Positions 10,977 through 29,034 of a stretch of 45,137 nt of DNA are shown in pieces. The first letter of the stretch is position 1, and every line of letters begins with the position of its first letter. A model generated the notes under the pieces. The model ran no database searches. It saw nothing but the letters and a program-made list of their open reading frames with translations, and had not been told where the DNA came from. A program made the translations under genes and the position numbers. The stretch is from Acidobacteriota bacterium (GTDB lineage Bacteria > Acidobacteriota > Blastocatellia > Pyrinomonadales > Pyrinomonadaceae), in contig JBKPPP010000004.1 in NCBI GenBank assembly GCA_046733615.1, positions 1-45,137 of the forward strand, given 5' to 3'.

Positions 10977-11005
10977 CTGTGGGAGGTCAGGTTCGCACAC
11001 TGGAT

Positions 11006-12436: not shown

Positions 12437-12454
12437 CCCGCTTTCGAAACGCGC

Positions 12455-14386
12455 ATGACCACTGATCCGCAATCGCTCAATCCCCGGCTCAACACTGAAG
12501 CAGCGTTGCTGCGTTCGGAAAAAGAGCTGGCTGACATCAAGTTTGCGCTCGACGAGTCGGCCATCGTCGCGATTACCGATCAGCGCGGCATTATCAATTA
12601 CGCCAACGACAAGTTCTGCCAGATCTCGAAGTATTCCCGCGAGGAGCTGCTCGGTCAGGACCATCGCATCATCAATTCCGGTTACCATTCGAAAGAGTTC
12701 ATCAGAAATCTTTGGACGACGATAGCGAGCGGCCACGTTTGGCGCGGCGAGATCAAGAATCGCGCCAAGGACGGGAGTCACTACTGGGTCGACACGACCA
12801 TCGTTCCGTTTCTCAACGCGGAGGGAAAGCCTTACCAGTACGTCGCGATTCGCAGCGACATCACCGAGCGTAAACGCGCTGAAGAGCAGATTCGCGAACA
12901 GGCGGCACTGCTGGACCAGGCGCAGGATGCGATCCTGGTTCGCGACCTCGACCAGAACATTCTCTTCTGGAACAAGGGAGCCGAGCAGATGTATGGCTGG
13001 ACCGCCGAAGAGGTCATCGGCAAGAAGGTTCAGGATGTGCTCTTCAAAGAACGTTCGAGCCAGTTTGAAGCTGCTCGCAGCGCGATCGTCGAACAAGGAG
13101 AGTGGAAGGGTGAAATTCGCCAGACGCGTCGCGACGGCGCGCAGATCATTGTCGAGAGCCGTTGGACTCTCGTGCGCGACGAGCAGGGAAGTCCGAGATC
13201 GATTCTCGTTATCAACACCGACATCACCGAGAAGAAGCGGATGGAATCGCAGTTTCTGCGCGCGCAGAGAATGGAGTCCATCGGCACGCTTGCGGGCGGC
13301 ATCGCTCACGATCTCAATAACGTGCTTTCGCCGATCCTGATGGCCATCGACATGCTGCAACTGCGAACGACCGACGCGAGCAGCAAGAAATGGCTCGACG
13401 TGCTGCGCACGAACGCGGAGCGTGGCGGCAACATGGTGCGGCAAGTGCTTTCGTTTGCGCGCGGCGTCGAAGGCGAACGCGTTGCTTTGCAACCGAAGCA
13501 TTTGATTAAAGAGATCGTCAAGATCCTGCGCGAAACATTTCCGAAGTCCGTCGTGATCAGCTTTCACGTGCCTGACGACCTCTGGATCATCTCGGCGGAT
13601 GCGACGCAGATGCACCAGGTGCTGATGAATCTCTGCGTAAACGCGAGAGACGCGATGCCTGAAGGCGGCTCGATCTCGATCCGGGCGGAAAATATTTTTG
13701 TAGATGAAAACTACGCCCGCATGCACATCGAAGCGAAGGCCGGCCGCTTCGTTGTAATTCAGGTCTCGGACACGGGACCGGGAATGGCGCCCGAGATTCA
13801 AAGCCGCATCTTTGAACCGTTCTTCACCACGAAAGAGATGACGAAGGGAACCGGTCTCGGTCTCTCGACGGCGTTGACGATCGTCAAGAGTCACGGCGGA
13901 TTCATCAACGTCTATAGCGAGCTGCACAAAGGGAGTAGCTTCGCGCTCTATCTTCCGGCGCTCGACGCGCCGGGCGCTGCTGATGTCGCGGCATTGCAAA
14001 CGGATCTGCCGGTCGGCAACGGCGAGTTGATCCTAGTCGTCGACGACGAAGACTCGATTCGCGAAATCACTCGCAGCACGCTCGAGACGTTTGGCTATCG
14101 CGTGTTGACTGCCAGCGACGGCACGGAAGCATTGGCGGTGTATGCCGACAAGAAGAACGAGATCGCCGTTGTGTTGACGGACATGGTCATGCCGTTCATG
14201 GACGGTCCGGCCACGATTCGTGCGCTGCAAAGAATGAATCCCCGGGTGCGAATCATCGCGGCCAGCGGGTTGGGCACCGGACAGCATGCCGGCGAAGGCG
14301 CGTTGGAAGGCGTCGCCGTGTTTCTCACTAAACCCTACACCGCGGAGAAGTTGCTGAGAACCCTCGCGCAGGTTCTTCACGGCTGA
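12455..14386 (+). CDS. Hybrid sensor histidine kinase (PAS-PAS-HisKA-HATPase-REC)
   Basis: Two PAS/PAC units (...HRIINSGYH...YVAIRSDITERKRAEE; ...ILVINTDITEKKRME). H-box GGIAHDLNNVL, N/G boxes (NLCVNARDAM, DTGPGM, GTGLGL). C-terminal receiver LVVDDEDSI...VLTDMVMPFMDG. Confidence 0.9.
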   Translation: MTTDPQSLNPRLNTEAALLRSEKELADIKFALDESAIVAITDQRGIINYANDKFCQISKYSREELLGQDHRIINSGYHSKEFIRNLWTTIASGHVWRGEIKNRAKDGSHYWVDTTIVPFLNAEGKPYQYVAIRSDITERKRAEEQIREQAALLDQAQDAILVRDLDQNILFWNKGAEQMYGWTAEEVIGKKVQDVLFKERSSQFEAARSAIVEQGEWKGEIRQTRRDGAQIIVESRWTLVRDEQGSPRSILVINTDITEKKRMESQFLRAQRMESIGTLAGGIAHDLNNVLSPILMAIDMLQLRTTDASSKKWLDVLRTNAERGGNMVRQVLSFARGVEGERVALQPKHLIKEIVKILRETFPKSVVISFHVPDDLWIISADATQMHQVLMNLCVNARDAMPEGGSISIRAENIFVDENYARMHIEAKAGRFVVIQVSDTGPGMAPEIQSRIFEPFFTTKEMTKGTGLGLSTALTIVKSHGGFINVYSELHKGSSFALYLPALDAPGAADVAALQTDLPVGNGELILVVDDEDSIREITRSTLETFGYRVLTASDGTEALAVYADKKNEIAVVLTDMVMPFMDGPATIRALQRMNPRVRIIAASGLGTGQHAGEGALEGVAVFLTKPYTAEKLLRTLAQVLHG

Positions 14387-14429: not shown

Positions 14430-14480
14430 ATCGCGGCGGTTCACCCCCGAAAAATTCCCGTAACCAGCAGATACAGAAGG

Positions 14481-14496
14481 TGGTACGGCTCGTGCA
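14481..14496 (+). promoter_or_regulatory. Candidate sigma54 (-24/-12) promoter
   Basis: TGGTACGGCTCGTGCA versus consensus TGGCACG-N4-TTGCW. The GG and GC dinucleotides have correct spacing. Lies 62 nt upstream of ATG 14558 and directly downstream of the EBP/kinase pair. Confidence 0.55.
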
Positions 14497-14557
14497 CTCG
14501 CGCTGGCAGTTGCGAAGACGTGTGAAGGGCAACGTCGAAGGCGAAGGAACGATAAGA

Positions 14558-15709
14558 ATGGCGAAAGTCTTGATCCTGGGTGGTGGGTTTGCCGGCGTTG
14601 TTGTTGCGGAACGCCTCGCTGAGCAGTTGGGCGGCGAACACCAGATCACGCTCGTCTCGCGGAGCCGGCAGTTCATTTTTTATCCGGCGCTGGTGCGACT
14701 CGCGTTCGGCAAAAACCAGCCGGAAGATGTTTCGTTCGATCTCCGACACACGCTATTGAGCCGGCGCGTTAACTTCGTCGAAGCGGAAGTTGCCCATATC
14801 GATCACGTTGAAAGACGAGTGACGATCGCTTACGGCGAAGTCGAAGGAAAACTCTCGTACGACTATCTCGTGTTTGCACTCGGCCGCCGGCTCGCGACCG
14901 AGCACATTCTCGGATTCTACGAGCACGCGCATCATCTGCTGAACGTCGACAAAGCGATCAAATTTCACAGGGCCATGGGCGAGCTTCACAAAGGACGGGC
15001 TGTCTTTGGTCAATGCGAGGGCGCTCGCCTGCCGGTTCCCGTTTACGAAAGTGCTTTTGCGCTGGCGCGCCGTCTTGAAGACAGCGGCGAACGTGACAGC
15101 GTGAACATAACAGTCGTGAGCCCGAGCACGCTCGAGGCGGAGCTCGGAGACTCGCGCGCGGCCGGCGCGATCGAGAACGCGCTGACGACCCAGCAGATCG
15201 AGTTCGTGCCTGACTTCAATATCACTTCAGTGACGGAAAACTCGGCGTTGACGGACAGCGGAGAAGCGCTCGAGTTCAACCTCCTAATGCTCGTGCCGCC
15301 GTTTCGCGGGCCTTCAGCCGCTTCATTCATGGGAGCGACCAATGAGGAAGGTTACCTCAGTGTCGAACTGACGATGCGCGTGCTGGGTCTGGATCGAATC
15401 TACGCCGTCGGCGATTGCGTGAACTTCGAAGGCCCTAAGATGGGCCACATGGCCGTGCGCCAGGGCGAAGTCGCGGCGGCGAATCTCGCGTCGGAACTTG
15501 CCGGACACGAACCCGCAGTGCGCTACCAGCATGAGATGAGATTCGTGATCGACGCCGCCGGAGACGACGCCGTCTATCTACACAAAGACATGGATGCCGA
15601 TGAAGCGTCCACAGTCAGACAAGGCCGCTTTTGGAGTTGGGCCAAACGCGCCCAACAACAGTATTGGGAATTCGGAGCAAGGAGGGGCGCCTCGCCCAAA
15701 ACTTTATGA
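14558..15709 (+). CDS. FAD-dependent pyridine nucleotide-disulfide oxidoreductase (sulfide:quinone oxidoreductase / NDH-2-like)
   Basis: The internal ATG at 14558 gives MAKVLILGGGFAGVVVA (Rossmann GxGxxG) with GAAGGA upstream. AVGDC...GPKMGHMAVRQG is typical of the SQR/NDH-2 C-terminal FAD region. The upstream extension from 14480 is basic and non-protein-like. Confidence 0.7.
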   Translation: MAKVLILGGGFAGVVVAERLAEQLGGEHQITLVSRSRQFIFYPALVRLAFGKNQPEDVSFDLRHTLLSRRVNFVEAEVAHIDHVERRVTIAYGEVEGKLSYDYLVFALGRRLATEHILGFYEHAHHLLNVDKAIKFHRAMGELHKGRAVFGQCEGARLPVPVYESAFALARRLEDSGERDSVNITVVSPSTLEAELGDSRAAGAIENALTTQQIEFVPDFNITSVTENSALTDSGEALEFNLLMLVPPFRGPSAASFMGATNEEGYLSVELTMRVLGLDRIYAVGDCVNFEGPKMGHMAVRQGEVAAANLASELAGHEPAVRYQHEMRFVIDAAGDDAVYLHKDMDADEASTVRQGRFWSWAKRAQQQYWEFGARRGASPKTL

Positions 15710-16659
15710 TGACTATCAAACGCATTGTTTGTCCCACTGACTTGTCCGCATACTCAGTCGGCGCGGTGCGTTACGCGCTGGCGCTGTCGCGCGTCCACGA
15801 TGCCGAGTTGATCCTTTTGCACTGCGAACCGCCTTCGGATCGTCTCGACAACGACGAAGAGCTCGGCATTCTGGAGTCGTCGGCGTTGGCTGAGATCAAC
15901 CCGCAGGAGCTCGTTGGCGCGCGCTGGCGGGCGATTGTCGCGACCGCGGAGGACGTGGGCGAGGAGATCATGAACCAGGCACAGTCGCAACACGCCGACT
16001 TGATCGTGATGAGATCGCGACGCCGGCCGCATCGCGCGGCCCTGCTCGGCTCGACGGCCGAAGCGGTGTGTCGCCGCGCGCCGTGCCCGGTGCTGGTGAT
16101 GCACGGCGACGAGCGCGAGTGGGTTGACGACGAGCTCCGCATCGATCTGCGCCGCGTGCTGGTTGCTTACGACTTCTCTGATTACTCCGAGCTGGCGCTC
16201 AACTACGCACTGTCAGTCGCGCAGGAGCATCAGGCAGAGCTCCATCTGCTGCACGTGTTGCCGCCGCGTTCGATAAACGATCCGGAGATTGCGTGGTATC
16301 CGAGCAAAGGCGAGTCGGCTTATCACACGGCTGCGCGCCGTTTGCAGCGAGCCGTGCCGGCTGAGGTCCATCTCTGGTGCACCGTCAAAACGGCCGTCAG
16401 CGAAGGACATCCTTATCGCGAGATTCTCAACTACGCCGAGAAGAACGACATCGACTTGATCAGCGTTGGCGCGCACGGCGCGGGGTTCGGCATGCGGGCT
16501 TTGTTTGGCTCGAACGTCGATCGCGTGTTGCGGCAGTCGCCTTGTCCGGTGCTGGTGGCACGCCCGTTGAAACCGGGAGTGATGCGGGCCAGAGAGGAAG
16601 CAAGCGTTTCGCTCACTTACGAAGGCGAGGGCGAGCGTGAGTTCGAACTGAGCTACTAA
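15706..16659 (+). CDS. Tandem universal stress protein (two UspA domains)
   Basis: ATG 15706 overlaps the upstream stop (ATGA). Two repeats each have ...LLHC/LLHV... and GS(T/N)...V(C/L)R...CPVLV motifs (GSTAEAVCRRAPCPVLVM; GSNVDRVLRQSPCPVLVA). Confidence 0.85.
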   Translation: MMTIKRIVCPTDLSAYSVGAVRYALALSRVHDAELILLHCEPPSDRLDNDEELGILESSALAEINPQELVGARWRAIVATAEDVGEEIMNQAQSQHADLIVMRSRRRPHRAALLGSTAEAVCRRAPCPVLVMHGDEREWVDDELRIDLRRVLVAYDFSDYSELALNYALSVAQEHQAELHLLHVLPPRSINDPEIAWYPSKGESAYHTAARRLQRAVPAEVHLWCTVKTAVSEGHPYREILNYAEKNDIDLISVGAHGAGFGMRALFGSNVDRVLRQSPCPVLVARPLKPGVMRAREEASVSLTYEGEGEREFELSY

Positions 16660-16677
16660 TCTCGCCCGGGAGTCGAT

Positions 16678-18621
16678 ATGGGAGAGCACAACGTCGAACA
16701 AGACTTTCAAGAGACGGACGCGCGGATCTTTATGAAGGCGCTGCTGGAAGATCTGCGGGCGCTGTCGTTCATGCTCGAAAACGGACGCGTTGAGAGCGGC
16801 ATCCGGCGCATCGGAGCGGAGCAGGAGATGTTTCTGATCGACAGCTACCTGCGACCCGCTCCGGTGTCGTTGGAAGTGCTGAGCCAGATTGACGACCCGC
16901 GGCTCACGACTGAGATCGCGCGTTTCAATCTGGAAGCGAACCTCACGCCGCTGCGTTTGACCGGCGCCTGTTTCAGCGAGATGCAGCAGGAGCTCGAGAA
17001 ACTGATCGCGCTGGCGCGGCGCAGTGCGGTCAGCCAGGGCGCAGACATCCTCCTCTCAGGCATTCTGCCGACGCTGCAAAAGTCAGACTTGACGCTCGAT
17101 AACCTCACGCCGGTCGCACGCTATCACGAGTTGAATCGCGGTGTTATTCGTCTGCGCGGCGGCCCGCTTTCGATTCACATCAAAGGGCTCGACGAGCTGC
17201 AGGCCACCCACGACAACATCATGATGGAGTCGTGCAACACCAGCTTCCAGGTCCACTTTCAAAGCACTGCCGGCGAGTTTGTGAATCACTACAACGTGGC
17301 GCAGGCGATCACGGCGCCGGTGCTCGCAGTCGCGGTTAACTCGCCGTTGCTGTTCGGCCGGCGCTTGTGGCAGGAGACGCGCGTCGCGCTGTTCCAGCAT
17401 TCGACTGATGAGCGTTCGTCGTCACAGCTCGCGCGCAGCCAGCCGACACGCGTGAGTTTTGGCGACGAGTGGTTGCGCAACTCGATCGTGGAGCTTTACC
17501 ACGAGCAGATTCTGCGTTTTCGTCCGATCATGATCAGCCGGGCGGACGAGAATCCTTTTGCCGTGCTCGCCCGCGGCGAGACGCCTTCGCTCTCGGCGCT
17601 GCGAATGCACAACGGAACCGTTTGGCGCTGGAATCGCGCCTGCTACGGCGTGACTGACGGCGTGCCGCACCTGCGCATCGAGAACCGCGCGTTGCCGTCC
17701 GGCCCAACGATTACAGACGAGATAGCTAACGCAGCTTTCTTCAGCGGCCTGATGCTGGCGCTCCCTGAAGAGTACGGCGAGATCGCGACGCAGATGGAGT
17801 TTGAAGAGGCGAAGTTGAACTTCTTCCGCGCGGCGCGACACGGCCTCGACGCTCAGTTCCGCTGGATAGGTGGGCAGAGTCTCAGCGCGTCGAAGCTGAT
17901 TTTGAACCACCTCCTGCCGCTCGCGAAACAGGGATTGAGCAGTGCGGAAGTGGCGAGTGAAGACATCGATCGTTACCTCGGCATTATCGAGGAGCGCGCG
18001 CGTTGCGGGCAGACAGGCGCGCGCTGGATCACGAAGTCCTGGGCGGCGATGGGAAACTCGACGTCGAGAGAAACGCGCCGCATGGCACTGACGTCCGCGA
18101 TGTTGAGCAATCAGAAGCAGAATCAACCGGGACACTGTTGGCCCGTGGTTGAAGTCGCCGAGACTGAGCAATGGGAACAGCACTACCAGGTCGTCAGCCA
18201 GTTTATGTCGACCGACTTGTTTACGGTCCATCCGGGCGACTTGATCGATCTCGCGGCAAGCGCGATGAATTGGCGGCACATCCGGCATGTGCCGGTGGAG
18301 GATGAGGATGGACGGCTGGTAGGTTTAGTGACTCATCGCGGTCTGTTGCGAATGATGAGTGGTGGAAGGAGCGAAGCGCTCACCGTGCGGGAGATCATGA
18401 TCGAGAATCCGGTCACCGTTTCGCCGTCGACGACGTCGTTGGAGGCGATGGATCTCATGCGCGGCAATCGCATCGGCTGTTTGCCGGTGGTGGAAGACAA
18501 TCGCCTCGTCGGGATCGTCACGTCGTACGACTTTCTCGAAGCGACGGCAGCACTTTTCAGGCAGCATCTTTCAGCGAAGACGGAAGCGCCCAAGTTTCTG
18601 GCGCAGGCAAACAATGGGTGA
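16678..18621 (+). CDS. Glutamate-cysteine ligase family 2 (carboxylate-amine ligase)-like domain fused to a C-terminal CBS pair
   Basis: N-terminal [12 protein letters not shown] and later GCS2-like blocks. The last ~130 aa form two CBS motifs ([16 protein letters not shown]...[16 protein letters not shown]; [16 protein letters not shown]...[20 protein letters not shown]). Confidence 0.65.
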
Positions 18622-18809: not shown

Positions 18810-19523
18810 ATGGTCGGCGCAAAGCGATGTGCAGTTACGGAGGAGCGGGATCCGCTTATCCCCGAAACGGTTTGTTGTAATTCGGCTTTAGGTGCGCTTC
18901 GCGGCCTGAACGCCGTCAAAACCAGCAGACACCATGCACGCGGTTCGGTGCTGTTTGTCGAAGGTCAAATGCCACGAGGAGTCTATATCCTGTGTGAAGG
19001 TCGTGCGAAAATCTCAATCGCGTCACCCGAAGGCAAGACACTCGTGCTTAGGATTGTTCAGCCTGGTGACGTTTTAGGATTGAATGCCGCACTCACCGGC
19101 TCAACACATACTGCGACGATGCAGGCGCTCGAGCCCTGCCGCGTCGACTTTATACCTCGGAAAGATCTGCTGCGGCTGCTCGATCGTGACAAGCGTGTCT
19201 ATGCCGATGTGGCGCAGGCGTTGAGCTACAAGCTCAATAGCGTGGTAGATCACACCCGGCTGCTGTTCCTGTCGCATTCAGTAACCGAAAGACTGGCGCG
19301 ACTGATGGTTCGGTGGTGTGATGAGGGTGGGAAACGAACCAGCCAGGGAATCAAGATCGTCACAGGTCTTACTCACGAAGAAATCGCCCAGATGATTTGC
19401 ACGTCGCGTGAGACCGTCACGCGACTACTAAGCAAGTTCAAGAAGCAGCATCTGGTCAGCCTTGTCGGCACGACGATTTTTATTCGCAATCGTAAAGCGC
19501 TCGAAGCTCTCGCGGGATTCTGA
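18810..19523 (+). CDS. Crp/Fnr-family transcriptional regulator
   Basis: cNMP-binding-like barrel (GSVLFVEGQMPRGVYILCEGRAKISIASPEGKTLVLRIVQPGDVLG) and C-terminal HTH (LTHEEIAQMICTSRETVTRLLSKFKK). The start was chosen at the internal ATG giving 237 aa; the ORF is open from 18618. Confidence 0.8.
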   Translation: MVGAKRCAVTEERDPLIPETVCCNSALGALRGLNAVKTSRHHARGSVLFVEGQMPRGVYILCEGRAKISIASPEGKTLVLRIVQPGDVLGLNAALTGSTHTATMQALEPCRVDFIPRKDLLRLLDRDKRVYADVAQALSYKLNSVVDHTRLLFLSHSVTERLARLMVRWCDEGGKRTSQGIKIVTGLTHEEIAQMICTSRETVTRLLSKFKKQHLVSLVGTTIFIRNRKALEALAGF

Positions 19524-19534
19524 AGTTCGACTTG

Positions 19535-19550
19535 TGTGATGAGCGTCACA
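19535..19550. promoter_or_regulatory. Perfect CRP-type palindrome TGTGA-N6-TCACA
   Basis: TGTGATGAGCGTCACA lies in the 91-nt gap between the Crp/Fnr gene and the decaheme gene. Its centre is about 72 nt upstream of ATG 19615. Confidence 0.55.
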
Positions 19551-19614
19551 GCCATCGGCACAAACTTATCATTAAAATTGGCGGCATTTTGAGGGCCTGA
19601 GGTGAAACACCACC

Positions 19615-20622
19615 ATGATTAAGTTTCTTATTATTCTCGCTCTGCTTGTAGCGGTGATGTGGCTCGCCACGGGAACCTATTCACAGTCTGCCCCGACAGG
19701 CCAGTCTCAAGCTAAGACTCAAACGCAATCACCCCACGCCAACAGCGGCGACTACGTGGGCAGCGAAGCGTGCAAGGATTGTCACGAGGATCAATTCAAA
19801 AACTTCTCTCATACGACGCACGCGCGTCTGACCATGCTCGCCAGTTGGAAAGATCGCGTGACAGGCTGTGAATCATGTCACGGACCCGGCAAGGCCCACA
19901 TCGAAGAAGGCGATCCCAAAAAGATCATGTCCTTCAAGAACAAGCCGCCCAAGGAGATCTCCGAGACCTGTTTGACTTGTCACTCCGGCAGGGAAGAGCA
20001 CAACAACTTCCGCCGCGGCGAGCACTGGCGTAATGATATCGGGTGCATCGATTGCCATGCGCCCCATTCACCGGCCACTGGCCGGCAACTTGCCGCTTCC
20101 AACGTCTTCGTTTCACCCGCAAACGCACAGAAGCCCGGTTTCTCCACGATTAAGCTGCTCAGAAATAGCGAGCCGCAATTGTGCCTGGGCTGTCATGGCG
20201 AAATGAAGCACCAGTTTAATTTGCCCTTCCATCACAAGGTGCTGGAAGGAGCAATGAAGTGCAGCGATTGCCACAATCCGCACGGCGGTTTCGAACTTAA
20301 ACAAACGCGATTGGCGACAGGCGCGGATGCGGCCTGTATCAAGTGTCACGCTGACAAACAAGGCCCATTCGTATACGAGCACGCGCCGGTCAAGACCGAA
20401 GGTTGCATCGCGTGTCATACACCTCACGGGTCGTCCAACCCACGGCTGTTGATTACGAGCAGGGTCGGACAGCTCTGTCTGACGTGTCACAGCTCGGCCC
20501 ACGGGGTTGGCGCCGACGAACCGGCAGGTCCGCAGCATAACCAAAATGCGCAATACGCTAATTGCACAAACTGTCACGTCAAGATTCACGGTTCACGTAC
20601 GAGTCCAGTCTTTTTCAGGTAA
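19615..20622 (+). CDS. Periplasmic decaheme c-type cytochrome, MtrA/DmsE/PioA/MtoA-like
   Basis: 335 aa with a signal peptide. Exactly ten CXXCH motifs (CKDCH, CESCH, CLTCH, CIDCH, CLGCH, CSDCH, CIKCH, CIACH, CLTCH, CTNCH). C-terminal CTNCHVKIHGS resembles the MtrA-family ending. GAGGTG RBS. Confidence 0.85.
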   Translation: MIKFLIILALLVAVMWLATGTYSQSAPTGQSQAKTQTQSPHANSGDYVGSEACKDCHEDQFKNFSHTTHARLTMLASWKDRVTGCESCHGPGKAHIEEGDPKKIMSFKNKPPKEISETCLTCHSGREEHNNFRRGEHWRNDIGCIDCHAPHSPATGRQLAASNVFVSPANAQKPGFSTIKLLRNSEPQLCLGCHGEMKHQFNLPFHHKVLEGAMKCSDCHNPHGGFELKQTRLATGADAACIKCHADKQGPFVYEHAPVKTEGCIACHTPHGSSNPRLLITSRVGQLCLTCHSSAHGVGADEPAGPQHNQNAQYANCTNCHVKIHGSRTSPVFFR

Positions 20623-20667
20623 CCGTATTGTGAATCGTGGCGGCGGGCTAAGTCGGGAGGATGTCCC

Positions 20668-22860
20668 ATGACAAGGAAACCAGAGCGAGCGTACTTGATA
20701 CTTTCGGGAATAGTATTGTTGCTGATGATAGTGTCGGCGCAAGCTCAGCAACCGTCGCCCACGCCAAAAACCGATAACAATCAACCTGGTGCGCCCGTCG
20801 AAGCAGGCGAGGACGCAGGTGACTACACGGTCATCTCGAGTTTGGAGTTCGGTTATCGGGGAATAAGACTCGACGGCGACGAGAACAAGTACAAGAGCGA
20901 TCTCAATTACAAGGCTGGCCCACGCCTGTTCGACAGTAGTTTCCTAATGAGATCGCAGGACGGCAAATCGAATTTTTTCAATACCCTGCTCGTGACTTCG
21001 ACTGGTTGGGGAGCTGACCCGCAGGGCAATTTCAGAATAAGCGTCGAGAATCCAAAGTGGTATCGCTTTGACGGCACTTACCGCCGTTTCAAATACTTTC
21101 GTTTTCTGAATACCTTTGCCAATCCAAACTGGGTATTTAGTCCGCCGCAGTTTAGTGTGCCGCCGAAGCCCGGGACCGGTGAGCACGGCTTCAACACGAA
21201 AACCACGATGGGAGATTTTGATCTCACCATCCTGCCGAAGAACGAACGAATCAGATTCAACGTCGGATACTCGCCGGAACGTTACAATGGCCCTGCGTTC
21301 ACGAACTACCACTCCGGCGGAAACGAATTCAATCTCCTGTCGAATCTCAGATCCCGAGCGAACGACTTCCGCGTGGGAGCGGACGGGCGGATTGGCGGGG
21401 TCAATTTCTCGTTCCTCCAGGGTTTTCGCCGTTTTCGTGACGACAGCTCTATCGATTCCGGCGTGAATCCGGGCATCAACGTGAACCCGACCGCCGCGAA
21501 TCTCACCACTTTCCACCGCAACGAGCCCGCGCGCGGCAGCGTTAATTACACGCGCTTCAGCTTGCAGACGCTGATTGCCGGAAAACTCGATATCACAGGC
21601 CGCATCATCTACAGCAAGGCGAAGCAGACCTACGATTTTGCTGAGAACTTCACCGGCCGCAACTGGAACCCGCGAATCACGGGATTCCCGCCCAGCCCGC
21701 CGGCCGCAACGCCGAATATTCTCAACCTGGGCCAGTACGTTCTGAATGGTGAATCCGAACGGCCCAATACGCTCGGAGACATCGGATTGACGTACCGCTT
21801 CAACGAGCATTTCCGGCTTTCAAACACGTTTCGCGTAGAAGATTTCAAGATCGACGGCTTCGCCCTGTTCAGTGATTTCTTCTCGCTCACGCGCGGAACG
21901 AGGACCGATACGATCGGATTCAGTAACAACAACGTAAACACGTTGACCAAGTACCGGAAATACCAGAACCTGGTCGAAGGCGACTACCAGTTCAATAATC
22001 GCTACTCGGTCCACCTTGGATATCGTTACGCGAGGCGCCGGATCGAGGAAGAGCTGAGCGGTTTTAACCTCGGCTCGAATTCGCCCACGCCGCTAACTCC
22101 GGAGAGTTTTGAGGAACACAACAACACCAACGTAGTGATTGGCGGTTTCAAAGCGCGGCCGCTCACTGACTGGACGATCTACTTCGACGCCGAACACGGC
22201 ACGGCCGACAACGTCTTCACTCGAATCGGAAACTACAACTTCACCAATGTTCGAGCTAAGAGCCGGTACAAACCGAGTCGAAATGTGGCGTTCAATGTGT
22301 CGTACATTACGAAAAACAATTCCAACCCTTCGGAGATCGCCGGTGTTTCGCTCGAAGACTTTGGCGTAAGCGTGAAATCGCGTCTCTTCTCCACGACTCT
22401 TGATTGGACTCCTGATTCAAGAGCGTCGTTCAGCACCGGATACAACTACCACTGGATCACCAGCAATTCCGCTATTGAATACTTCTTCAATAGTGTACAG
22501 CACCCGTTTGGTCACAGTGTCTATTACAGCCGGAACAACTTCTTCTTTATCGATGCGGTGCTCCAGCCGGCTCGCCGCGTGACACTATTCACGTCGTACC
22601 GGATCAATAAAGATAACGGTCAGGGCAATCGAGTTGCCGACCCGACCGGTAATCCCGGATTGCTGATCGCTTCTTATCCGATGAGTTTCCAGTCACCCGA
22701 AGCGCGGCTGGCGATCAAGTTACATCATCGACTTGATTGGAACATTGGCTACCAGTATTACAACTACGACGAAAGCGCGATTGTCGGTCCAAGACCGCAG
22801 AACTATCACGTACACCTCCCATACACGTCGTTGCGAATTTACATCGGTCGAAGAGAATAG
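20668..22860 (+). CDS. Large outer-membrane beta-barrel protein, MtrB/PioB-like porin partner of the decaheme
   Basis: 730 aa, signal peptide ...LLLMIVSAQAQQ, no Cys. Alternating aromatic/polar beta-strand pattern throughout (many Y/F/W-x-G/N/D turns). GGGAGG RBS. Position immediately 3' of an MtrA-like gene and a size like MtrB (about 700 aa). Family assignment is inferred, not searched. Confidence 0.6.
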   Translation: MTRKPERAYLILSGIVLLLMIVSAQAQQPSPTPKTDNNQPGAPVEAGEDAGDYTVISSLEFGYRGIRLDGDENKYKSDLNYKAGPRLFDSSFLMRSQDGKSNFFNTLLVTSTGWGADPQGNFRISVENPKWYRFDGTYRRFKYFRFLNTFANPNWVFSPPQFSVPPKPGTGEHGFNTKTTMGDFDLTILPKNERIRFNVGYSPERYNGPAFTNYHSGGNEFNLLSNLRSRANDFRVGADGRIGGVNFSFLQGFRRFRDDSSIDSGVNPGINVNPTAANLTTFHRNEPARGSVNYTRFSLQTLIAGKLDITGRIIYSKAKQTYDFAENFTGRNWNPRITGFPPSPPAATPNILNLGQYVLNGESERPNTLGDIGLTYRFNEHFRLSNTFRVEDFKIDGFALFSDFFSLTRGTRTDTIGFSNNNVNTLTKYRKYQNLVEGDYQFNNRYSVHLGYRYARRRIEEELSGFNLGSNSPTPLTPESFEEHNNTNVVIGGFKARPLTDWTIYFDAEHGTADNVFTRIGNYNFTNVRAKSRYKPSRNVAFNVSYITKNNSNPSEIAGVSLEDFGVSVKSRLFSTTLDWTPDSRASFSTGYNYHWITSNSAIEYFFNSVQHPFGHSVYYSRNNFFFIDAVLQPARRVTLFTSYRINKDNGQGNRVADPTGNPGLLIASYPMSFQSPEARLAIKLHHRLDWNIGYQYYNYDESAIVGPRPQNYHVHLPYTSLRIYIGRRE

Positions 22861-22920
22861 AGTTAGAAACGAAGGCCACGGTAAGTTGCAGTTTCAGTTC
22901 TGATAACTCCGGAGGACTGA

Positions 22921-23403
22921 GTGGGCGACATTATTGCCGATAAGACAACTGGCCCAGGCCGCGATCCTGCATTACAAACAACGTCCCGTCGCAAGTTCCT
23001 CGATTACTTGCTCGGAACCAGTGCAGTCGCGACCCTGGGTGCGATCTTGTATCCGATCATCCGGTTCATGGTGCCGCCGCACATCGTGGAGGCACTGCAA
23101 AACTCCGTGGTGGCCGCCAAGGTGACTGAGCTCCCGCCAAACTCGGCGAAGATCTTCAAATTCGGCAGCAAACCCGGGATTGTTATCCGCACGGCGTCCG
23201 GAGAATTGAAGGCCTTCTCAGCCGTGTGCACCCACCTCGACTGCATCGTGCAGTATCGTCAGGATACGAAACAGATCTGGTGCGCCTGCCATAACGGTCA
23301 ATACAACCTCAACGGAGAAAACATCGGCGGTCCCCCGCCGCGGCCCCTGGAAGAATATGTAGTGAACAAACGAGGCGACGACATTGTAGTAAACAGATCC
23401 TGA
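22921..23403 (+). CDS. Rieske [2Fe-2S] subunit of a cytochrome bc/b6f-type complex, Tat-exported
   Basis: GTG start after GGAGGA. Twin-arginine motif [11 protein letters not shown] plus TM helix. Rieske boxes CTHLDC and CACHNG. Confidence 0.88.
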
Positions 23404-23408
23404 AGCCG

Positions 23409-24473
23409 ATGAAAGTCGACACAGTGAAAAGCTGGCTTGATGAGCGTCTCTACATAAGCGCGCTCACCCAGGCGGCGCAGAAGAAAGAAGTTCCGCTTCA
23501 CCGTCAGTCAATCTGGTACTACTTCGGTGGTATGACGCTGTTTCTTTTCGTGGTCCAGGTGGTCACGGGAATCCTGTTATTGCTCTACTACCGGCCGAGC
23601 GCTGAAAACGCGTTTGAGAGCGTTCAGTTCATCATGACTGAGGTGAAGTTTGGCTGGCTGATCCGTTCAATTCATAGTTGGTCGGCGAACCTGATGATTC
23701 TGACGCTGTTCATCCACCTGTTCAGCGTCTATTTCATGCGCGCTTACAACCGGCCTCGCGAGATCACGTGGGTCAGCGGCGTGGTGCTGCTGTTCATTTC
23801 CATCTGTTTTGGGTTCAGCGGGTATTTACTGCCGTGGAACGAGGTCTCGTTCTTTGCTACGAAGGTGGGCACTGAGATTGCCGGCGTCATTCCAGTCGTC
23901 GGCAAGACAATGTTGCGCTTCCTGCGCGGCGGTGACGAAGTGACCGGCGCCACGTTGACGCGCTTTTTCGGATTTCACGTCGCAGTGCTACCGGCAATGG
24001 CGACGGTATTTGTATTTGTGCACGTCCTGCTGGTCCAGGTGCACGGCATGCATGTTCCGGCTCGTTATGAACAGAATAGCCGGCGCATAAAATTCTTTCC
24101 AAACTTCATAATGCGCGACGCGATCGGGTGGTTATTCGCAATTGGCGCGTTGGCTGCACTCGCCGCCATTTTCCCTTGGGAGCTCGGCGTCAAAGCGGAT
24201 CCGTTTGCGCCGGCCCCGGCCGGAATAAAACCGGAATGGTATTTCCTGTTCATGTTTCAAACACTGAAATACATTCCAGCGAAGATTCTCAGTATTGATG
24301 GCGAAGTTCTCGGCATTCTTTTTTTCATGTTGGCAGGCGGCGCCCTGTTTCTGGTGCCGTTCATTAATCGCTCTGCGGAGCAGCATCCGCGCCGCAGGCT
24401 GGTGTTCAATCTACTCGGAATTATCGCGATCTTGTTCATGGCAGTTATGACGGTGATCGGGTATTTAGCGTGA
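23409..24473 (+). CDS. Cytochrome b (fused b6 + subunit IV type)
   Basis: [30 protein letters not shown]. Helix B has H-x13-H ([15 protein letters not shown]) and helix D has H-x14-H ([16 protein letters not shown]), which is b6-like spacing. Qo-site PEWY motif ([15 protein letters not shown]). Confidence 0.9.
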
Positions 24474-25756
24474 TAACGAGAATCCGATTACTTTTGCTGT
24501 TTGCGGCCGGCGTGTTGTTGATTACTGCCTGCCCGGCCGCTGCTCAGCAGAAAAACTCGTGTCTCGAGTGTCACAGCAAACTGGAAGGAGAATTCGGCGC
24601 GCCCGCGCGTTCGATTAAAGACGACATTCATCTTTCCAGAGGTCTCTCCTGCAACGATTGCCACGGCGGCGATCCGACCAAGGACGACAAGGACGCCGCG
24701 AAAGACAGATCGAAAGGTTATTTGGGGCGGCCTCGAACGGTAGATATTCCCGCCTTCTGCGGCAAGTGTCACAACGATGCGAGCTTTATGAAGAAGTTTA
24801 ATCCGGCTTTGCGAGTGGACCAGGAGAAGGAGTACTCGACCAGCGTTCACGGACAACTGCTAAAAAAGGGAAACGAGAAGGTCGCCACCTGTATCAGTTG
24901 TCATGGCGTGCACGGAATTCGCGCCGTGAGCGACGCTCTTTCTTCAGTGTACCCGTCGAACGTTGCGGAGACCTGTTCCAAGTGCCACAGCGAAGCGGGC
25001 CGGATGGCCGAATTCAAAATTCCGACAGATCAATACTCGAGGTACAAGAAGAGTGTTCATGCGAAGGCGTTGTATGAGAAGCAGGATCTCAGTGCTCCGA
25101 CATGCAACGACTGTCATGGTAATCATGGCGCGGCTCCTCCGGGCATCGCGTCGGTGGCAAATGTTTGCGGGCAGTGTCACGCACGGCAGGCGGAGCTGTT
25201 TCAAGCCAGCCCACACAAAGTCGCGTTCGATAACGCGGGATTTGGCGAGTGCATCAAGTGTCATAACAACCACGACATCTACCCGCCCACCGATGCTCTG
25301 ATAGGCACAGGCGAAAACTCTATTTGTATATCGTGTCATAAACCGGGCGACAAAGGATTCATCGCTGCCGGCCAAATGCGCGGCGCGATCGACGACCTGT
25401 TGGCTCGTATCAAGCGCTCGGAGGAGATACTGGGTCGGGCGGAACGCGCAGGCATGGAAGTAAGTAAGCCCAAGTTTGATTTGCGTGAGGCAATTGACGG
25501 CGTTACTCATGCACGCGTGCTGATCCACACCTCATCTCCCGCGGAAGTCGACAAGCTGGTTGTGCCGGCGGTCGGGGTTGCGACAAAGGCGTACGAGTCT
25601 GGACAGGGCGCGCTTGCGGAGTTGAATGTTAGACGCAAAGGTCTGGTGGTCTCACTATTTTTTATCCTGTTCCTGGCGTTTCTGGTGTATTTAAAGCTGA
25701 GAGAAATTGAGAGACGGCGGCCAGCCGAGGGATTTTCAAAGAGTGGCGGCACCTAA
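24470..25756 (+). CDS. Membrane-anchored nonaheme c-type cytochrome (occupies the cytochrome c1/f position of the Rieske/cyt b operon)
   Basis: GTG start overlaps the cyt b stop (GTGA). Nine CXXCH motifs. N-terminal signal with possible lipobox LITAC. Helical region and C-terminal TM helix [18 protein letters not shown]. Three motifs are of the CxxCHxxHxI type. Confidence 0.8.
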
Positions 25757-25765
25757 AAAGGACAA

Positions 25766-26968
25766 ATGCGCATACCGGTACAAGGGACAATCTCCTTCTT
25801 AGCGTGTCTCGTTTTCTTGCTCTGCTTCGGCGGTTTCATCGACGCGCACGATTCGTCGGTAGTCGCTCAGACGCGTCGTCGTGCGCGGCCACGACAGAGT
25901 CAACCACAGAAGCCGCGCATCGACTACTCGAGATTTTCGCACCACACTCACGTCCAGACGCAAAAGCTTGCCTGTGATTCGTGCCATAAGTTTCCCTCGA
26001 AAAACTGGAAAGAAGTTCGTAAGGGCGACGATGCGTTCGCCGACGTGACTGACTTTCCCGAACACCAGGCCTGTCTCAACTGTCATCGCACACAGTTCTT
26101 CGCGCGTGAACGGCCGGCGCCGGTCATCTGTTCGAACTGTCACGTTGCGGTTACTCCAAAAAACACCGCGCGGCATCCATTTCCAAGTCTGGGCGCACCA
26201 TTCCTGAGCACGCGTCCGGATTTCGTTTCGGAGTTCAAGGTTGCGTTTCCACATGAGAAACACGTGGACGTGGTGGGTAGCCTGCGTTTCAGACTTCGCG
26301 ATGATCGGACATTCGCTTTTGCTCATGCATCGTACACGCGGGATGATGCGCAGTCTAAGAGTTGCGTCGTATGCCATCACACCTACCAGCCCCAGGGAAA
26401 GTCGAGTGACGAGTTTGTTACCCCGCCGCCGAAGAACCTGCCCGAAGACGCGTTCTGGTTGAAGAAGGGCGCCTTCAAAACAACACCGACTACCCACAGC
26501 GATTGTTCCACTTGTCACAACGAAGAGGCGGGGATCGCTCCTTCGCCAAAGGACTGTGCTGCCTGTCATAAGTTTTCGCCTGCGGTTACTGAGCCGCTGC
26601 GCGACTTCGATCCAAAACTCGCCGCGACGATGCGCGTAACTGATTGGGTGATGCTGCGAAAGTGGTCACGACGCAGCGCCGGACGTTATCGACACGAGTT
26701 CGATGTTCATAATGAGATGGGTTGTACGTCCTGCCATAACCCGGCCGTGATGAACACGCTCGACGAGAGAACGTTTGTTTCGGTGAAGTCGTGCGGCGGG
26801 AGCGGTGGCTGTCACATTGAAACAAATACGGAAGGCATTCTGAACTACGAGATCGAACAGAAGAAAAAGAATCCGGCGTTCCATTGTGTCAAGTGCCACA
26901 TCATAATAGGCAAGAACCCCGTTCCGCAGGATCACCTGGACGCGATCCCGAAAGCGCCAACGAAATAA
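25766..26968 (+). CDS. Multiheme c-type cytochrome, c7/c3-like repeats (8 CXXCH + 1 CX5CH)
   Basis: 400 aa with a hydrophobic N-terminus. Eight CXXCH motifs plus CGGSGGCH. Repeated F-x-H-x-x-H strings (FSHHTH, FPHEKH) are typical of c7/c3 domains. Confidence 0.8.
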   Translation: MRIPVQGTISFLACLVFLLCFGGFIDAHDSSVVAQTRRRARPRQSQPQKPRIDYSRFSHHTHVQTQKLACDSCHKFPSKNWKEVRKGDDAFADVTDFPEHQACLNCHRTQFFARERPAPVICSNCHVAVTPKNTARHPFPSLGAPFLSTRPDFVSEFKVAFPHEKHVDVVGSLRFRLRDDRTFAFAHASYTRDDAQSKSCVVCHHTYQPQGKSSDEFVTPPPKNLPEDAFWLKKGAFKTTPTTHSDCSTCHNEEAGIAPSPKDCAACHKFSPAVTEPLRDFDPKLAATMRVTDWVMLRKWSRRSAGRYRHEFDVHNEMGCTSCHNPAVMNTLDERTFVSVKSCGGSGGCHIETNTEGILNYEIEQKKKNPAFHCVKCHIIIGKNPVPQDHLDAIPKAPTK

Positions 26969-27792
26969 TGCTGGAAGAGACTACAGGCAAACCGCGCGTA
27001 TCGTTATTGCTTTGCGCCTTCATGGGCGTCGTCGTCTTTTGTATGGCCCAACCGAGCGCCGCGGCGCAGGAGCCGAGTCTTGATTACTCGAAGTTTCTTC
27101 ACACGACGCAGAACCATGCGCGCATGCCTTGTTTGTTATGTCACAGGCGAGAGAGCAATTCGCCCCGGCCTGCTCTGCCGGGTGCGGCGCAGCACGCCCC
27201 TTGCGCGGGATGCCATGCGCAGCAGTTTGCGAATAAAGAGAGTCCCATCTGCACGATTTGTCATACCGACGTCAATTCCGGCGCGACGAAGCCTTTCCCG
27301 CCGCTGAAGAGTTTCCGCGTCAACTTCGATCACGGAAAACACTTGAGTATGGGTGGCGTGAGTTGTGCTACCTGTCATCGGCCCGCAAGAGGCGGTGTCG
27401 CGCTCTCGATTCCGGCCGGCTTCAATGCCCATTCGACCTGCTTTACCTGTCACACGCCTCGTGCAAAATCCGGCGATCGAGACATTTCTTCCTGCGGAAC
27501 GTGCCATAAAGTCGGCGGTTACTCCAGAACGCCTCAGTGGACCGCGGCTTTTCGCATGAGTTTCAGTCACGCTAAACATGGCTCGGGGCAGAAGCTGAGT
27601 TGTGACGACTGTCATCAGGTGAGAACCGGCTTGCCGCAGAGCCGACAAGTGACTGCTCCGGAGCCTGCTAATCATCACGCGAGCGGGCGAACCCAGAGTT
27701 GCATGACTTGTCATGATGGCAAGCGGGCGTTTGGCGGTGATGATTTCTCTGTTTGCAAGCGATGTCACACAGGAGTGCGGTGGCAGTTTTGA
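26968..27792 (+). CDS. Nonaheme c-type cytochrome built of c7-type triheme modules
   Basis: ATG 26968 overlaps the preceding TAA (TAATG). Signal peptide ...VVFCMAQPSAAAQ. Nine CXXCH in about 250 mature residues, with FDHGKH and FSHAKH strings. Confidence 0.8.
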   Translation: MLEETTGKPRVSLLLCAFMGVVVFCMAQPSAAAQEPSLDYSKFLHTTQNHARMPCLLCHRRESNSPRPALPGAAQHAPCAGCHAQQFANKESPICTICHTDVNSGATKPFPPLKSFRVNFDHGKHLSMGGVSCATCHRPARGGVALSIPAGFNAHSTCFTCHTPRAKSGDRDISSCGTCHKVGGYSRTPQWTAAFRMSFSHAKHGSGQKLSCDDCHQVRTGLPQSRQVTAPEPANHHASGRTQSCMTCHDGKRAFGGDDFSVCKRCHTGVRWQF

Positions 27793-27845
27793 TGTGAAGC
27801 CCCCAACGTTGAATTCGTTTTGAGAAGTTTCCAGGAGGTGTGAAC

Positions 27846-28421
27846 ATGAAGCGCTTCATCGCTGTCGTTATCGTTTTCGGCGCGCTTGTCCTTTACTTCA
27901 ACTTGGCGGGGCCACTCCGCGATGCAGCAGCACAGGATGCTAAGAAGCCGCAGGATACTTATGTGCTCGCTCAGGAGGCGAAACTGGGTACGGTTACCTT
28001 CAGTCATCTCAATCACACGACAAAGAATCGCAATTCCGAAGGCACCGGCCCGAGTGCGTGTATTGAGTGTCACCATACAGCACAGCCTGCTGCTGAGGCA
28101 GCCAAGCATCCGCCACTCAAGACGGTCTGGCCTGCGGATCGAACCACGACGCTGACTGCTGAAACGTTGGCGAAGGATCCAAACGCCGTCGGCGCAGTCT
28201 GCCGCGACTGTCACGCGCGCGCCGATACCAAGCCGAAATTGCTGCCGGAGATTCCGCAGATAAAACTTGAAGTTGGCACCGAGCTGGTGACGCTGACAAA
28301 CCAGCAGGCATTCCATCGCAACTGTGCCGGGTGTCATGACCAGGTCGCCAAGGCGAGGACTGACGTGAATCCTCCCACTTCGAAGAAGTGCACGGCTTGT
28401 CACAAGAAAACAGCCGCCTGA
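27846..28421 (+). CDS. Tetraheme cytochrome c3-family protein
   Basis: MKRFIAVVIVFGALVLYFNLA signal/anchor. Four CXXCH (CIECH, CRDCH, CAGCH, CTACH). VTFSHLNH string. GGAGGTG RBS. Confidence 0.8.
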   Translation: MKRFIAVVIVFGALVLYFNLAGPLRDAAAQDAKKPQDTYVLAQEAKLGTVTFSHLNHTTKNRNSEGTGPSACIECHHTAQPAAEAAKHPPLKTVWPADRTTTLTAETLAKDPNAVGAVCRDCHARADTKPKLLPEIPQIKLEVGTELVTLTNQQAFHRNCAGCHDQVAKARTDVNPPTSKKCTACHKKTAA

Positions 28422-28436
28422 TGCGGGTGAGAGTGA

Positions 28437-28475
28437 CTGCGGAAAGTTTCCCAGTTCTGCGCCAACAACCGCAGA
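28437..28475. promoter_or_regulatory. Candidate enhancer (UAS): CTGCGGAAAGTTTCC plus inverted repeat TCTGCG-N8-CGCAGA
   Basis: GGAAA-G-TTTCC palindrome preceded by CTGCG (28437-28452), and an inverted repeat at 28456-28475. Both lie about 40-78 bp upstream of the -24 element at 28514. Same architecture as 14392-14429. Confidence 0.35.
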
Positions 28476-28513
28476 TTTGCCGGATTTTCAGGCGTTTTGC
28501 TGTGTATAAGAAG

Positions 28514-28529
28514 CGGCACGCTCATTGCT
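28514..28529 (+). promoter_or_regulatory. Candidate sigma54 (-24/-12) promoter
   Basis: CGGCACGCTCATTGCT matches TGGCACG-N4-TTGCW at all conserved positions except the first T. Lies 63 nt upstream of ATG 28592 in a 170-nt gap. Confidence 0.6.
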
Positions 28530-28591
28530 CCTCGAACGGCGCGGGAGGCTAACCCCGGCTCGTAAAGTTGCTACATGAGAGGGCTGAAGCG

Positions 28592-28921: not shown

Positions 28922-29034
28922 CTGCCGATTTAGAAAAACTGAACGGGCCATAAACAGACACAGAGCACAAGCAGAGTGAATTTTACTTCGCTTGTGCGCT
29001 TGTGTTTGTTATGGCTCTTTACTGCATCCGCTTA

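Follow-up and report, generated by a model that had tools for sequence, protein, structure and literature searches.

An MtrAB-type porin–cytochrome pair without an adjacent MtrC heads a multi-module respiratory gene cluster in a soil acidobacterium

The DNA analysed here is a 45-kb window (45,137 nucleotides, the whole stretch) of one genome, that of a Pyrinomonadaceae (Acidobacteriota) soil bacterium, and it encodes, at 19615–22860, a decaheme cytochrome directly followed by an outer-membrane β-barrel. Sequence and profile comparisons identify this pair as an MtrC-less MtrAB-type outer-membrane electron conduit heading a respiratory cluster of ~13 kb (19615–32501), in which every gene lies on the + strand and is separated from the next by a short gap or a 4-nt overlap. 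Because other Pyrinomonadaceae contigs carry this set of genes in rearranged order, the junctions are tight or overlapping and a CRP box in front of the pair is conserved, we treat the cluster as one functional unit. Although the direction of electron flow is not readable from sequence, we favour outward transfer through the conduit over uptake, and put it forward, with middling confidence, as the best explanation of the cluster.

The first gene of the pair (19615–20622, + strand) encodes a 335-aa MtrA-like c-type cytochrome, periplasmic or transmembrane, that begins with a signal peptide and carries exactly ten CXXCH motifs (residues 53, 85, 119, 144, 190, 216, 241, 264, 288 and 317). It scored 236.5 bits, over a cutoff of 192.2, against TIGR03508 (‘DmsE family decaheme c-type cytochrome’), which we take to be a generic subfamily model covering MtrA, MtrD, DmsE, PioA and MtoA. 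Its top solved relative in the PDB was chain A of 6r2q (E 1e-31), which is the MtrA of Shewanella baltica, as entry 6R2Q is titled ‘Structure of the Mtr complex’. Six histidines outside the heme motifs were invariant across an alignment of 39 sequences and three more were nearly so, making them candidate distal heme ligands. Between hemes 4 and 5 the window copy and the closest cluster representative share an insertion of ~22 residues (~153–178) that is missing from the seven more distant representatives aligned, only some of which were assignable to Acidobacteriota.

The second gene (20668–22860, + strand) starts 45 nt past the decaheme stop and encodes a 730-aa protein with a signal peptide and no heme motif, which we identify as an MtrB/PioB-like outer-membrane β-barrel sheath. 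The window copy matched no Pfam or NCBIfam family, and neither the single sequence nor a 50-sequence profile found a PDB sequence match. PF11854 (MtrB_PioB) was touched at E ≤ 1 by 32 of 50 barrel homologues (best 7.8e-8) and not by the window copy. Most barrels of genuine Bryobacterales mtrCAB clusters also miss this model, so the Pfam negative on the window barrel is uninformative; by this comparison, the blank is a matter of model insensitivity in this phylum, and not of non-membership. At the level of sequence the decisive test is profile–profile comparison, in which hhalign aligned the window barrel family with the barrels at the MtrB position of Bryobacterales loci at a probability of 100% (E 2.8e-43, 632 columns, 23% identity).

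Structural modelling is consistent with this assignment. An AF2 model built on the barrel homologues, of moderate confidence, was all-beta with ~26 long strands (≥6 residues; mean pLDDT 60, strand cores 80–93). Foldseek against the PDB ranked MtrB (6r2q_B) second by E-value (1.5e-8) and gave it the top TM-scores (0.43/0.47); the other matches were generic 22-strand TonB-dependent receptors with similar E-values. MtrB itself is a 26-strand sheath around MtrA (PMC7198977), and we infer that the window decaheme and barrel form a complex of this kind. Barrel relatives are numerous: 1393 were detected, the best 120 of these being 73–86% identical to the window copy, and at least 120 distinct 90%-identity clusters lie at ≥73% identity. 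Named organisms among the best 120 were nearly all Pyrinomonadaceae metagenome-assembled genomes (MAGs), and a minority of the 120 carried an MtrB/PioB annotation or score.

Eight open reading frames (ORFs) in the window contain heme motifs, all on the + strand, with CXXCH counts of 10, 9, 8, 9, 4, 1, 9 and 7 and one extra CX3CH in the last; further CXXCH-rich frames were found on neither strand. None of the eight is a decaheme of the MtrC/OmcA type (650–800 aa). The sole long one (642 aa, nine hemes) ends in a multi-helix b-type cytochrome domain (five hydrophobic segments, PF01292), which makes it an inner-membrane protein, and the top score of PF22113 (MtrC/MtrF domain) in the window was 23.2 bits, on a 193-aa tetraheme, under a cutoff of 30. 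A preliminary description of this DNA had proposed an MtrA/MtrB-like pair, consisting of a 335-aa decaheme, a 45-nt gap and a 730-aa barrel, among eight heme-motif ORFs of which none resembled MtrC or OmcA. The ORF and motif scans, the decaheme and barrel matches given above and the searches for MtrC bear this out.

To place the pair, the decaheme alignment (nine sequences) was scanned against one genome per GTDB species, which gave 80 loci, and the neighbourhood of each was inspected over ±8–10 kb with local tblastn, phmmer and hidden Markov models (HMMs). Identity to the window decaheme was 55–76% in Pyrinomonadaceae and 56% in a ‘Chloracidobacterium’ MAG, 39–49% in Terriglobia, Acidobacteriaceae and Acidoferrum (39% in the isolate Telmatobacter bradus DSM 23630), 35–41% in Bryobacteraceae and 31–36% in other phyla; a homologous barrel lies immediately 3′ of the decaheme in ~60 loci. 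Two loci, from a ‘Bifidobacteriaceae’ MAG (L077) and a ‘Clostridia’ MAG (L080), carry a Gram-negative-type decaheme, accompanied in L077 by a barrel and an ImcH-like gene, and are probably mis-binned contigs. Very heme-dense ORFs stand beside the decaheme in loci of Armatimonadetes and Planctomycetota (L046 5903–7693, 26 CXXCH in 596 aa; L064 6834–8765, 22 CXXCH in 643 aa).

Neighbour joining on 82 decahemes (274 columns, 100 bootstraps), with S. baltica MtrA as the only reference from among MtrA, MtoA, PioA and DmsE, placed the window copy in a Blastocatellia-type subgroup (support 100) of a Blastocatellia and Terriglobia group of 36 tips (support 100). Sister to this clade in the tree is a Bryobacterales group of 12 tips (support 100); the whole acidobacterial assemblage had a support of 91, and S. 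baltica MtrA stood far off, among proteobacterial sequences. Not one of the 36 Blastocatellia and Terriglobia loci showed an MtrC gene within 8–10 kb of the pair, and an HMM made from genuine acidobacterial MtrC had no match in the window or, over the same distance, in the other 35. The missing adjacent surface decaheme is therefore a trait of the clade and not an accident of the window. In Bryobacterales, a decaheme of 669–766 aa lies directly 5′ of the MtrA-like gene in 10 of 12 loci (L042–L045, L047, L048, L050–L052 and L059; for example, mtrC, mtrA and mtrB at 5344–7560, 7899–8933 and 8765–10996 of L044), the other two being truncated upstream. The five of these proteins tested scored 155–177 bits against PF22113, with two MtrC/MtrF pentaheme domains each, and canonical mtrCAB therefore exists in Acidobacteriota. 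In published trees, MtoA and PioA sit among MtrA sequences and form no function-specific clades (PMC8805035), so that decaheme phylogeny cannot settle the direction of electron flow.

The last gene of the cluster (30927–32501, + strand) encodes a 524-aa inner-membrane multiheme cytochrome of the ImcH type, with three N-terminal transmembrane (TM) helices (18–36, 49–67 and 101–119), a CX3CH motif (CGATCH at 137) and seven CXXCH motifs (162, 211, 320, 437, 457, 493 and 517). The ImcH family is defined by three N-terminal TM helices, a CX3CH beside the third, at least 5–6 CXXCH in a characteristic spacing and a length of ~500 aa (PMC6295460). In ImcH of Geobacter sulfurreducens (GSU3259) the heme motifs are at 132, 156, 205, 311, 428, 448 and 486 and the helices at 13–35, 45–67 and 100–122, and an Acidobacteria homologue, OLE50779.1, has motifs at 137, 161, 210, 319, 436, 456, 493 and 517 (PMC6295460, Table S3 for the latter). 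Motif spacing in the window protein (25/49/109/117/20/36) follows that of GSU3259 (24/49/106/117/20/38) and is nearly identical to that of OLE50779.1, so that by motif and helix positions, the basis of the GSU3259 comparison in place of an alignment, the ORF matches the ImcH family motif by motif.

Immediately upstream, a 642-aa cytochrome of the CbcL/MtoC/MtrH type (29002–30930, + strand) combines nine c-hemes (9 CXXCH) with a HydC/FdnI-like b-type domain (PF01292, E 5.7e-14; TIGR01583, E 2.4e-16). Published tables of this family give nine N-terminal CXXCH and six C-terminal TM helices (PMC6295460). A simple hydrophobicity scan of the window protein found five C-terminal hydrophobic segments after residue 372 and did not detect a sixth, and in its architecture the ORF matches the family definition.

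A third inner-membrane module directly follows the barrel. It comprises a Rieske [2Fe-2S] subunit anchored in the membrane by its N-terminus (22921–23403, + strand; PF00355, TM_PetC and the motifs CTHLDC...CACHNG), a cytochrome b in which a b6-like N-terminal part is fused to a subunit-IV-like C-terminal part, with seven hydrophobic helices (23409–24473, +), and a nonaheme cytochrome c with nine CXXCH and a C-terminal hydrophobic helix as membrane anchor (24470–25756, +), whose start overlaps the cytochrome b stop by 4 nt. The cytochrome b scored 189.6 bits against PF00033 and also matched PF00032; a b6 model (244 bits) and an ExtP-like model (212 bits) each stayed under their cutoffs. A Rieske protein, a cytochrome b with b6 and subunit IV parts and a c-type subunit, the components of a Rieske/cyt b complex, are thus encoded together. 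The nonaheme is presumed to be the c-subunit, and a nonaheme in that role is unusual.

Between these modules lie the genes for further cytochromes. An octaheme of the c3/c7 type (25766–26968, + strand; 400 aa, 8 CXXCH, Cytochrome_C7/CIII domains) is probably periplasmic. It stands directly 3′ of the barrel in several loci (L001 and L005–L010) and was for that reason weighed as a lipoprotein surface partner, an assignment we rejected: its N-terminal Cys is unconserved, with no lipobox, and its domains are of the c3/c7 type only. It is followed by a nonaheme with three c7-type triheme domains (26968–27792, +; 9 CXXCH), which scored 44.6 bits against TIGR04257 (cutoff 40) and found as its best PDB match 3ov0, the GSU1996 polymer of G. 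sulfurreducens (E 2.1e-9). In L005 (12224–13993) the octaheme and this c7-repeat nonaheme are fused in a single 589-aa ORF with 17 hemes. A 193-aa tetraheme of the c3 type (27840–28421, +; 4 CXXCH, Cytochrom_CIII 28.7 bits) comes next, and then a membrane-anchored class-I monoheme cytochrome c of 117 aa (28568–28921, +; PF13442, with a PNMP motif like that of a Met ligand). The best PDB matches of the monoheme were actinobacterial QcrC domains, aligned on the PxNMP motif, and from its sequence it appears to be a His/Met class-I cytochrome of the high-potential type. No MtoD match was found for it in the PDB at E ≤ 1, and an MtoD-like identity was set aside.

Comparison with the related loci separates the constant parts of the cluster from the variable ones. 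L001–L005, the loci with close barrel homologues, share this gene set in rearranged order, and the Crp-family gene, decaheme and barrel always stand in front. The block of Rieske, cytochrome b and nonaheme genes adjoins the pair in the window, L003 and L004, lies at the cluster end in L001 and is absent within 10 kb in L005, where a cytochrome c552 gene (NrfA-like, PF02335; 16542–17924) neighbours the ImcH-like gene and takes the place of the CbcL and Rieske modules. Most other Blastocatellia-type loci have a cluster without Rieske, L006 showing only a distant reverse-strand Rieske gene. Rieske/cyt b modules were confined to the window and loci L001, L003 and L004, apart from four Terriglobia loci that carry them independently. 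A homologue of the nonaheme accompanies Rieske and cytochrome b in four of the six loci with both genes (L001, L003, L004 and L016); in L015 a 49%-identity tblastn match, under the phmmer threshold, follows cytochrome b directly, and in L026 no nonaheme homologue was detected. A CbcL-like gene is present in only ~5 of 14 Blastocatellia-type loci. The ImcH-like gene was found within 8–10 kb in 10 of 13 Blastocatellia-type loci besides the window, and also in several loci of Terriglobia (including T. bradus), Bryobacterales and Vicinamibacterales; the monoheme is kept in 12 of the 13. Module content differs between genomes, many of which retain the ImcH-like protein alone. Of the inner-membrane (quinol-side) partners of the pair, this protein is the most constant, the Rieske module being variable.

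Upstream of the decaheme lies a Crp/Fnr-family transcription regulator (18810–19523, + strand; cNMP_binding, HTH_Crp_2 and Crp domains), the ORF of which opens at 18618, the start at 18810 having been picked from the alignment of homologues. Homologues hold the position immediately 5′ of the decaheme in L001, L003–L006 and L010–L013. An FNR-type oxygen sensor was considered and rejected, the protein being without the conserved N-terminal Cys cluster. A perfect CRP-type palindrome, TGTGA-N6-TCACA, lies at 19535–19550, 65 nt 5′ of the decaheme start codon, and overlaps a −35-like hexamer (promoter-like site 19545–19572); it is the single such site in the window, where 0.05 would be expected by chance. 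Of the 13 other Blastocatellia-type loci, 10 have a CRP-type box with at most one mismatch 70–140 nt 5′ of the decaheme, and so do several Terriglobia loci (for example, L001 8841–8856, L003 8687–8702, and ~7872–7895 in L010–L013 and L030). The adjacent Crp-family regulator probably switches the cluster on at this box.

Further upstream (10973–14386), a sigma-54-dependent NtrC-type response regulator and a PAS/PAS hybrid histidine kinase are encoded, and similar sigma-54 activators or kinases lie beside the cluster in L001, L003, L004 and L005; this recurrence suggests a second regulatory layer. The interval 5′ of the Crp-family gene (14480–18621) holds a type III SQR-like flavoprotein (148 bits, under its cutoff), a tandem universal stress protein (Usp) and a GCS2-like/CBS-pair protein. 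Usp and GCS2-CBS keep the same position in L001, L005 and L010, and pyruvate:ferredoxin oxidoreductase is encoded near by in L001. The flanks hold ordinary housekeeping and heterotrophic genes, such as a GH31 glycosidase (512–2932) and a polyphosphate kinase (PPK1, 7156–9336).

If electrons flow outward, up to three alternative modules would oxidise quinol at the inner membrane (an ImcH-like protein, a CbcL-like one and the Rieske/cyt b complex with its nonaheme c-subunit), and the c3/c7-type multiheme cytochromes would ferry electrons over the periplasm to the ten-heme decaheme, which, threaded through the ~26-strand barrel as an outer-membrane wire, would be their exit from the cell. Without MtrC, the outermost heme would reduce acceptors able to reach the barrel mouth, the candidates being chelated Fe(III), humic quinones, shuttles and closely apposed oxides. 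In a heterotroph, the conduit would serve in this way as an auxiliary electron sink. The presence of several quinol-oxidising modules, by analogy, parallels the potential-dependent branching between ImcH, CbcL and CbcBA in G. sulfurreducens (PMC12133095).

Several lines of evidence lead us to favour this direction. First, the most constant quinol-side partner of the pair is ImcH-like, and ImcH homologues, regarded as quinol oxidases, have been reported only in Fe(III) reducers (PMC6295460). Second, the c7-repeat cytochrome is GSU1996-like and the periplasmic carriers as a whole are of Geobacter-like c7/c3 types. The MtrC-less clade (bootstrap 100) also takes in Acidobacteriaceae genera, a family in whose isolates Fe(III) reduction has been reported and Fe(II) oxidation has not (PMC8100337). 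Pyrinomonadaceae brought into culture live as aerobic chemo-organotrophs. The preliminary description had rated the architecture as fitting electron uptake at least as well as metal reduction, and that rating is not borne out in this form, given the variability of the Rieske module, the constancy of the ImcH-like partner and the Geobacter-like carriers. Its argument from the Rieske genes is correct on adjacency in the window, an arrangement shared with L003 and L004, and fails to generalise, as the module is absent from the cluster in most Blastocatellia-type loci. Its overall interpretation thus keeps the identity of the pair and the lack of MtrC in the window and loses the leaning towards uptake, in favour of which there remain the mtoABCD-like gene set and the class-I monoheme.

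Several points weigh against outward transfer. The conserved monoheme looks, from its motifs, like a His/Met class-I cytochrome, and cytochromes of that kind usually feed terminal oxidases. We know of no characterised outward extracellular electron transfer chain that includes a Rieske/cyt b complex. The structural model of the barrel is of only moderate confidence (pLDDT 60), and the regulation proposed above comes with a regulator that has no FNR-type cysteine cluster, so that anaerobic induction is not implied. A decaheme, a barrel, a CbcL/MtoC-type cytochrome and a monoheme are together, by analogy, the gene content of mtoABCD, and the lack of an MtrC/OmcA-type surface cytochrome is a hallmark of the Fe(II)-oxidising MtoAB and PioAB systems (PMC5566968). 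Finally, Mtr-type conduits are reversible and their direction is not inferable from sequence (PMC8805035).

These points lend themselves to the strongest rival reading, electron uptake, which we regard as possible and clearly less likely than outward transfer. The MtrC-less pair would work like MtoAB or PioAB, with the barrel mouth as the site at which extracellular Fe(II), reduced humics or minerals are oxidised, and electrons would pass from the multihemes to the class-I monoheme and a terminal oxidase or, by an alternative route, reach the quinone pool via the CbcL/MtoC-like protein or a Rieske/cyt b complex running in reverse. Neither the window nor any of the 36 clade loci (8–10 kb) has MtrC, which is likewise missing, with OmcA, from the genomes of Fe(II)-oxidising bacteria, whose mtoABCD shares the core gene content of the cluster (PMC5566968). 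On the quinone side, the CbcL/MtoC family is found in oxidisers and reducers alike, whereas the family of the ImcH-like partner is known from reducers only (PMC6295460). The conserved monoheme, with its PNMP Met-ligand motif, resembles cytochromes linked to bc complexes and oxidases, yet shows no detectable similarity to MtoD. Rieske/cyt b modules recur beside the pair in two separate acidobacterial clades, but are missing from the cluster in most Blastocatellia-type loci. HiPIP and Cyc2 were not seen among the window ORFs examined (those of ≥100 aa in the HiPIP scan), and the cultured members of the host lineage are heterotrophs. To our knowledge, no Fe(II)-oxidising Acidobacteriota are known.

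We consider it unlikely, though not far behind uptake, that the conduit is bidirectional and balances redox, discharging electrons at low oxygen and taking them up from reduced humics or Fe(II) on the return of oxygen, with different inner-membrane modules serving opposite directions. The mixture of ‘reducer’ parts (the ImcH-like protein and the c7-repeat cytochrome) with ‘oxidiser-like’ ones (the class-I monoheme, the MtoC-like protein and Rieske/cyt b) would fit such a role, and MtrCAB is reversible in the laboratory, with MtoA and PioA among MtrA in trees (PMC8805035); a fixed two-way design is not conserved, however, and many genomes keep the ImcH-like protein alone. It is improbable that the pair belongs to a canonical MtrCAB system with the gene for its surface cytochrome at another place in the genome. 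In Desulfobacterota, mtrAB is always clustered and mtrC may sit in a separate operon (PMC12133095), and the window covers 45 kb of the genome; against this, none of the 36 clade loci has an MtrC-like gene within 8–10 kb, and in the MtrC-bearing acidobacterial clade the gene is always directly 5′ of mtrA (10 of 12 loci, two truncated upstream). A DmsEF-like conduit feeding an extracellular catalytic enzyme instead of metals, suggested by the name of the ‘DmsE family’ model and by a molybdopterin oxidoreductase operon upstream on the opposite strand in L003, is highly improbable: TIGR03508 is generic for MtrA, DmsE, PioA and MtoA, the L003 molybdoenzyme is not conserved in other loci, and the window has no DmsAB-like gene, molybdopterin oxidoreductase or other exported catalytic subunit, so that the cluster is not of the DmsEFAB type.

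As encoded in the window, the pair is a divergent member of the porin–cytochrome family of MtrAB, MtoAB and PioAB, and not an MtrCAB system. Taken alone it is no surprise, since MtoAB and PioAB are well known and a published count already includes PioA/MtoA homologues from Acidobacteria (PMC10654088). What is new in detail is the coupling of an MtrAB-type wire to Geobacter-type ImcH and CbcL modules, with an optional Rieske/cyt b complex that includes a nonaheme, a combination we have not found described. We tentatively suggest, with more doubt than conviction, that abundant, presumed aerobic soil heterotrophs (Pyrinomonadaceae and related Acidobacteriota) run an undescribed hybrid chain in which an MtrC-less MtrAB conduit is fed by ImcH and CbcL and, in some genomes, also by a nonaheme-containing Rieske/cyt b complex that runs a Q-cycle. 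If so, respiration of extracellular acceptors (or electron uptake) would be energy-conserving through a bc-type complex, and the lineage would have an unrecognised part in the redox cycling of iron and humics in soil. Bacteria that carry the pair are very common in soil, and an active cluster would bear on that cycling under fluctuating oxygen. An MtrC-less clade beside an MtrC-bearing one in the same phylum offers a natural comparison for what MtrC adds, and T. bradus DSM 23630, a cultured carrier of the MtrC-less pair (L036; NZ_CP184532.1 4772952–4789848) with an ImcH-like gene ~4 kb downstream, is a possible experimental system.

Set against known systems, the window cluster resembles Shewanella MtrCAB (6R2Q) in its MtrA-related decaheme of ~335 aa and in the large modelled barrel of ~26 strands directly 3′ of it, for which MtrB gave the top TM-score. 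It differs in having neither an MtrC/OmcA lipoprotein decaheme nor CymA, in a barrel too divergent to match PF11854 or MtrB by sequence, and in a decaheme that lies inside an Acidobacteriota clade, far from S. baltica MtrA.

With MtoAB(CD) of Gallionella, Sideroxydans and Dechloromonas and PioABC of Rhodopseudomonas it shares an MtrAB-type pair without a surface decaheme and, within the cluster, a nonaheme b-type cytochrome of the MtoC/CbcL family and a monoheme (PMC5566968, PMC6295460). Unlike these systems, the window belongs to a soil Acidobacterium that is not a known iron oxidiser, its monoheme is not detectably MtoD-like, no HiPIP was found among its ORFs of ≥100 aa, and its cluster further contains an ImcH-like protein, cytochromes of the c7/c3 types and a Rieske/cyt b module. 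Over its final three heme intervals, the nonaheme b-type cytochrome of the window (29/42/28) is closer to Geobacter CbcL (28/43/28) than to MtoC (25/30/28), and is in this respect CbcL-like.

The inner-membrane and periplasmic parts find their counterparts in G. sulfurreducens. The ImcH-like protein agrees with ImcH (GSU3259) in the number of TM helices, in the CX3CH motif and in the spacing of its hemes. Nine hemes and a HydC/FdnI-like domain are common to the CbcL-like protein and CbcL (GSU0274), and the c7-repeat nonaheme matches the c7 polymers of the GSU1996 type. Geobacter couples its proteins of these kinds to Pcc and Ext porin–cytochrome complexes with lipoprotein outer cytochromes, whereas in the window the same modules are linked to an MtrAB-type pair.

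Within the phylum, the closest counterpart is the mtrC-mtrA-mtrB arrangement of Bryobacterales, which has a homologous decaheme (35–38% identity) and barrel and, in some loci, ImcH- or CbcL-like neighbours; it is set apart by the MtrC/MtrF-family decaheme directly 5′ of the pair and by a split between the two clades with a bootstrap of 100. A survey published in 2018 reported no mtrAB or mtoAB adjacent to imcH (PMC6295460); in the window, as in many other Acidobacteriota loci, an MtrAB-type pair and an ImcH-like gene are neighbours.

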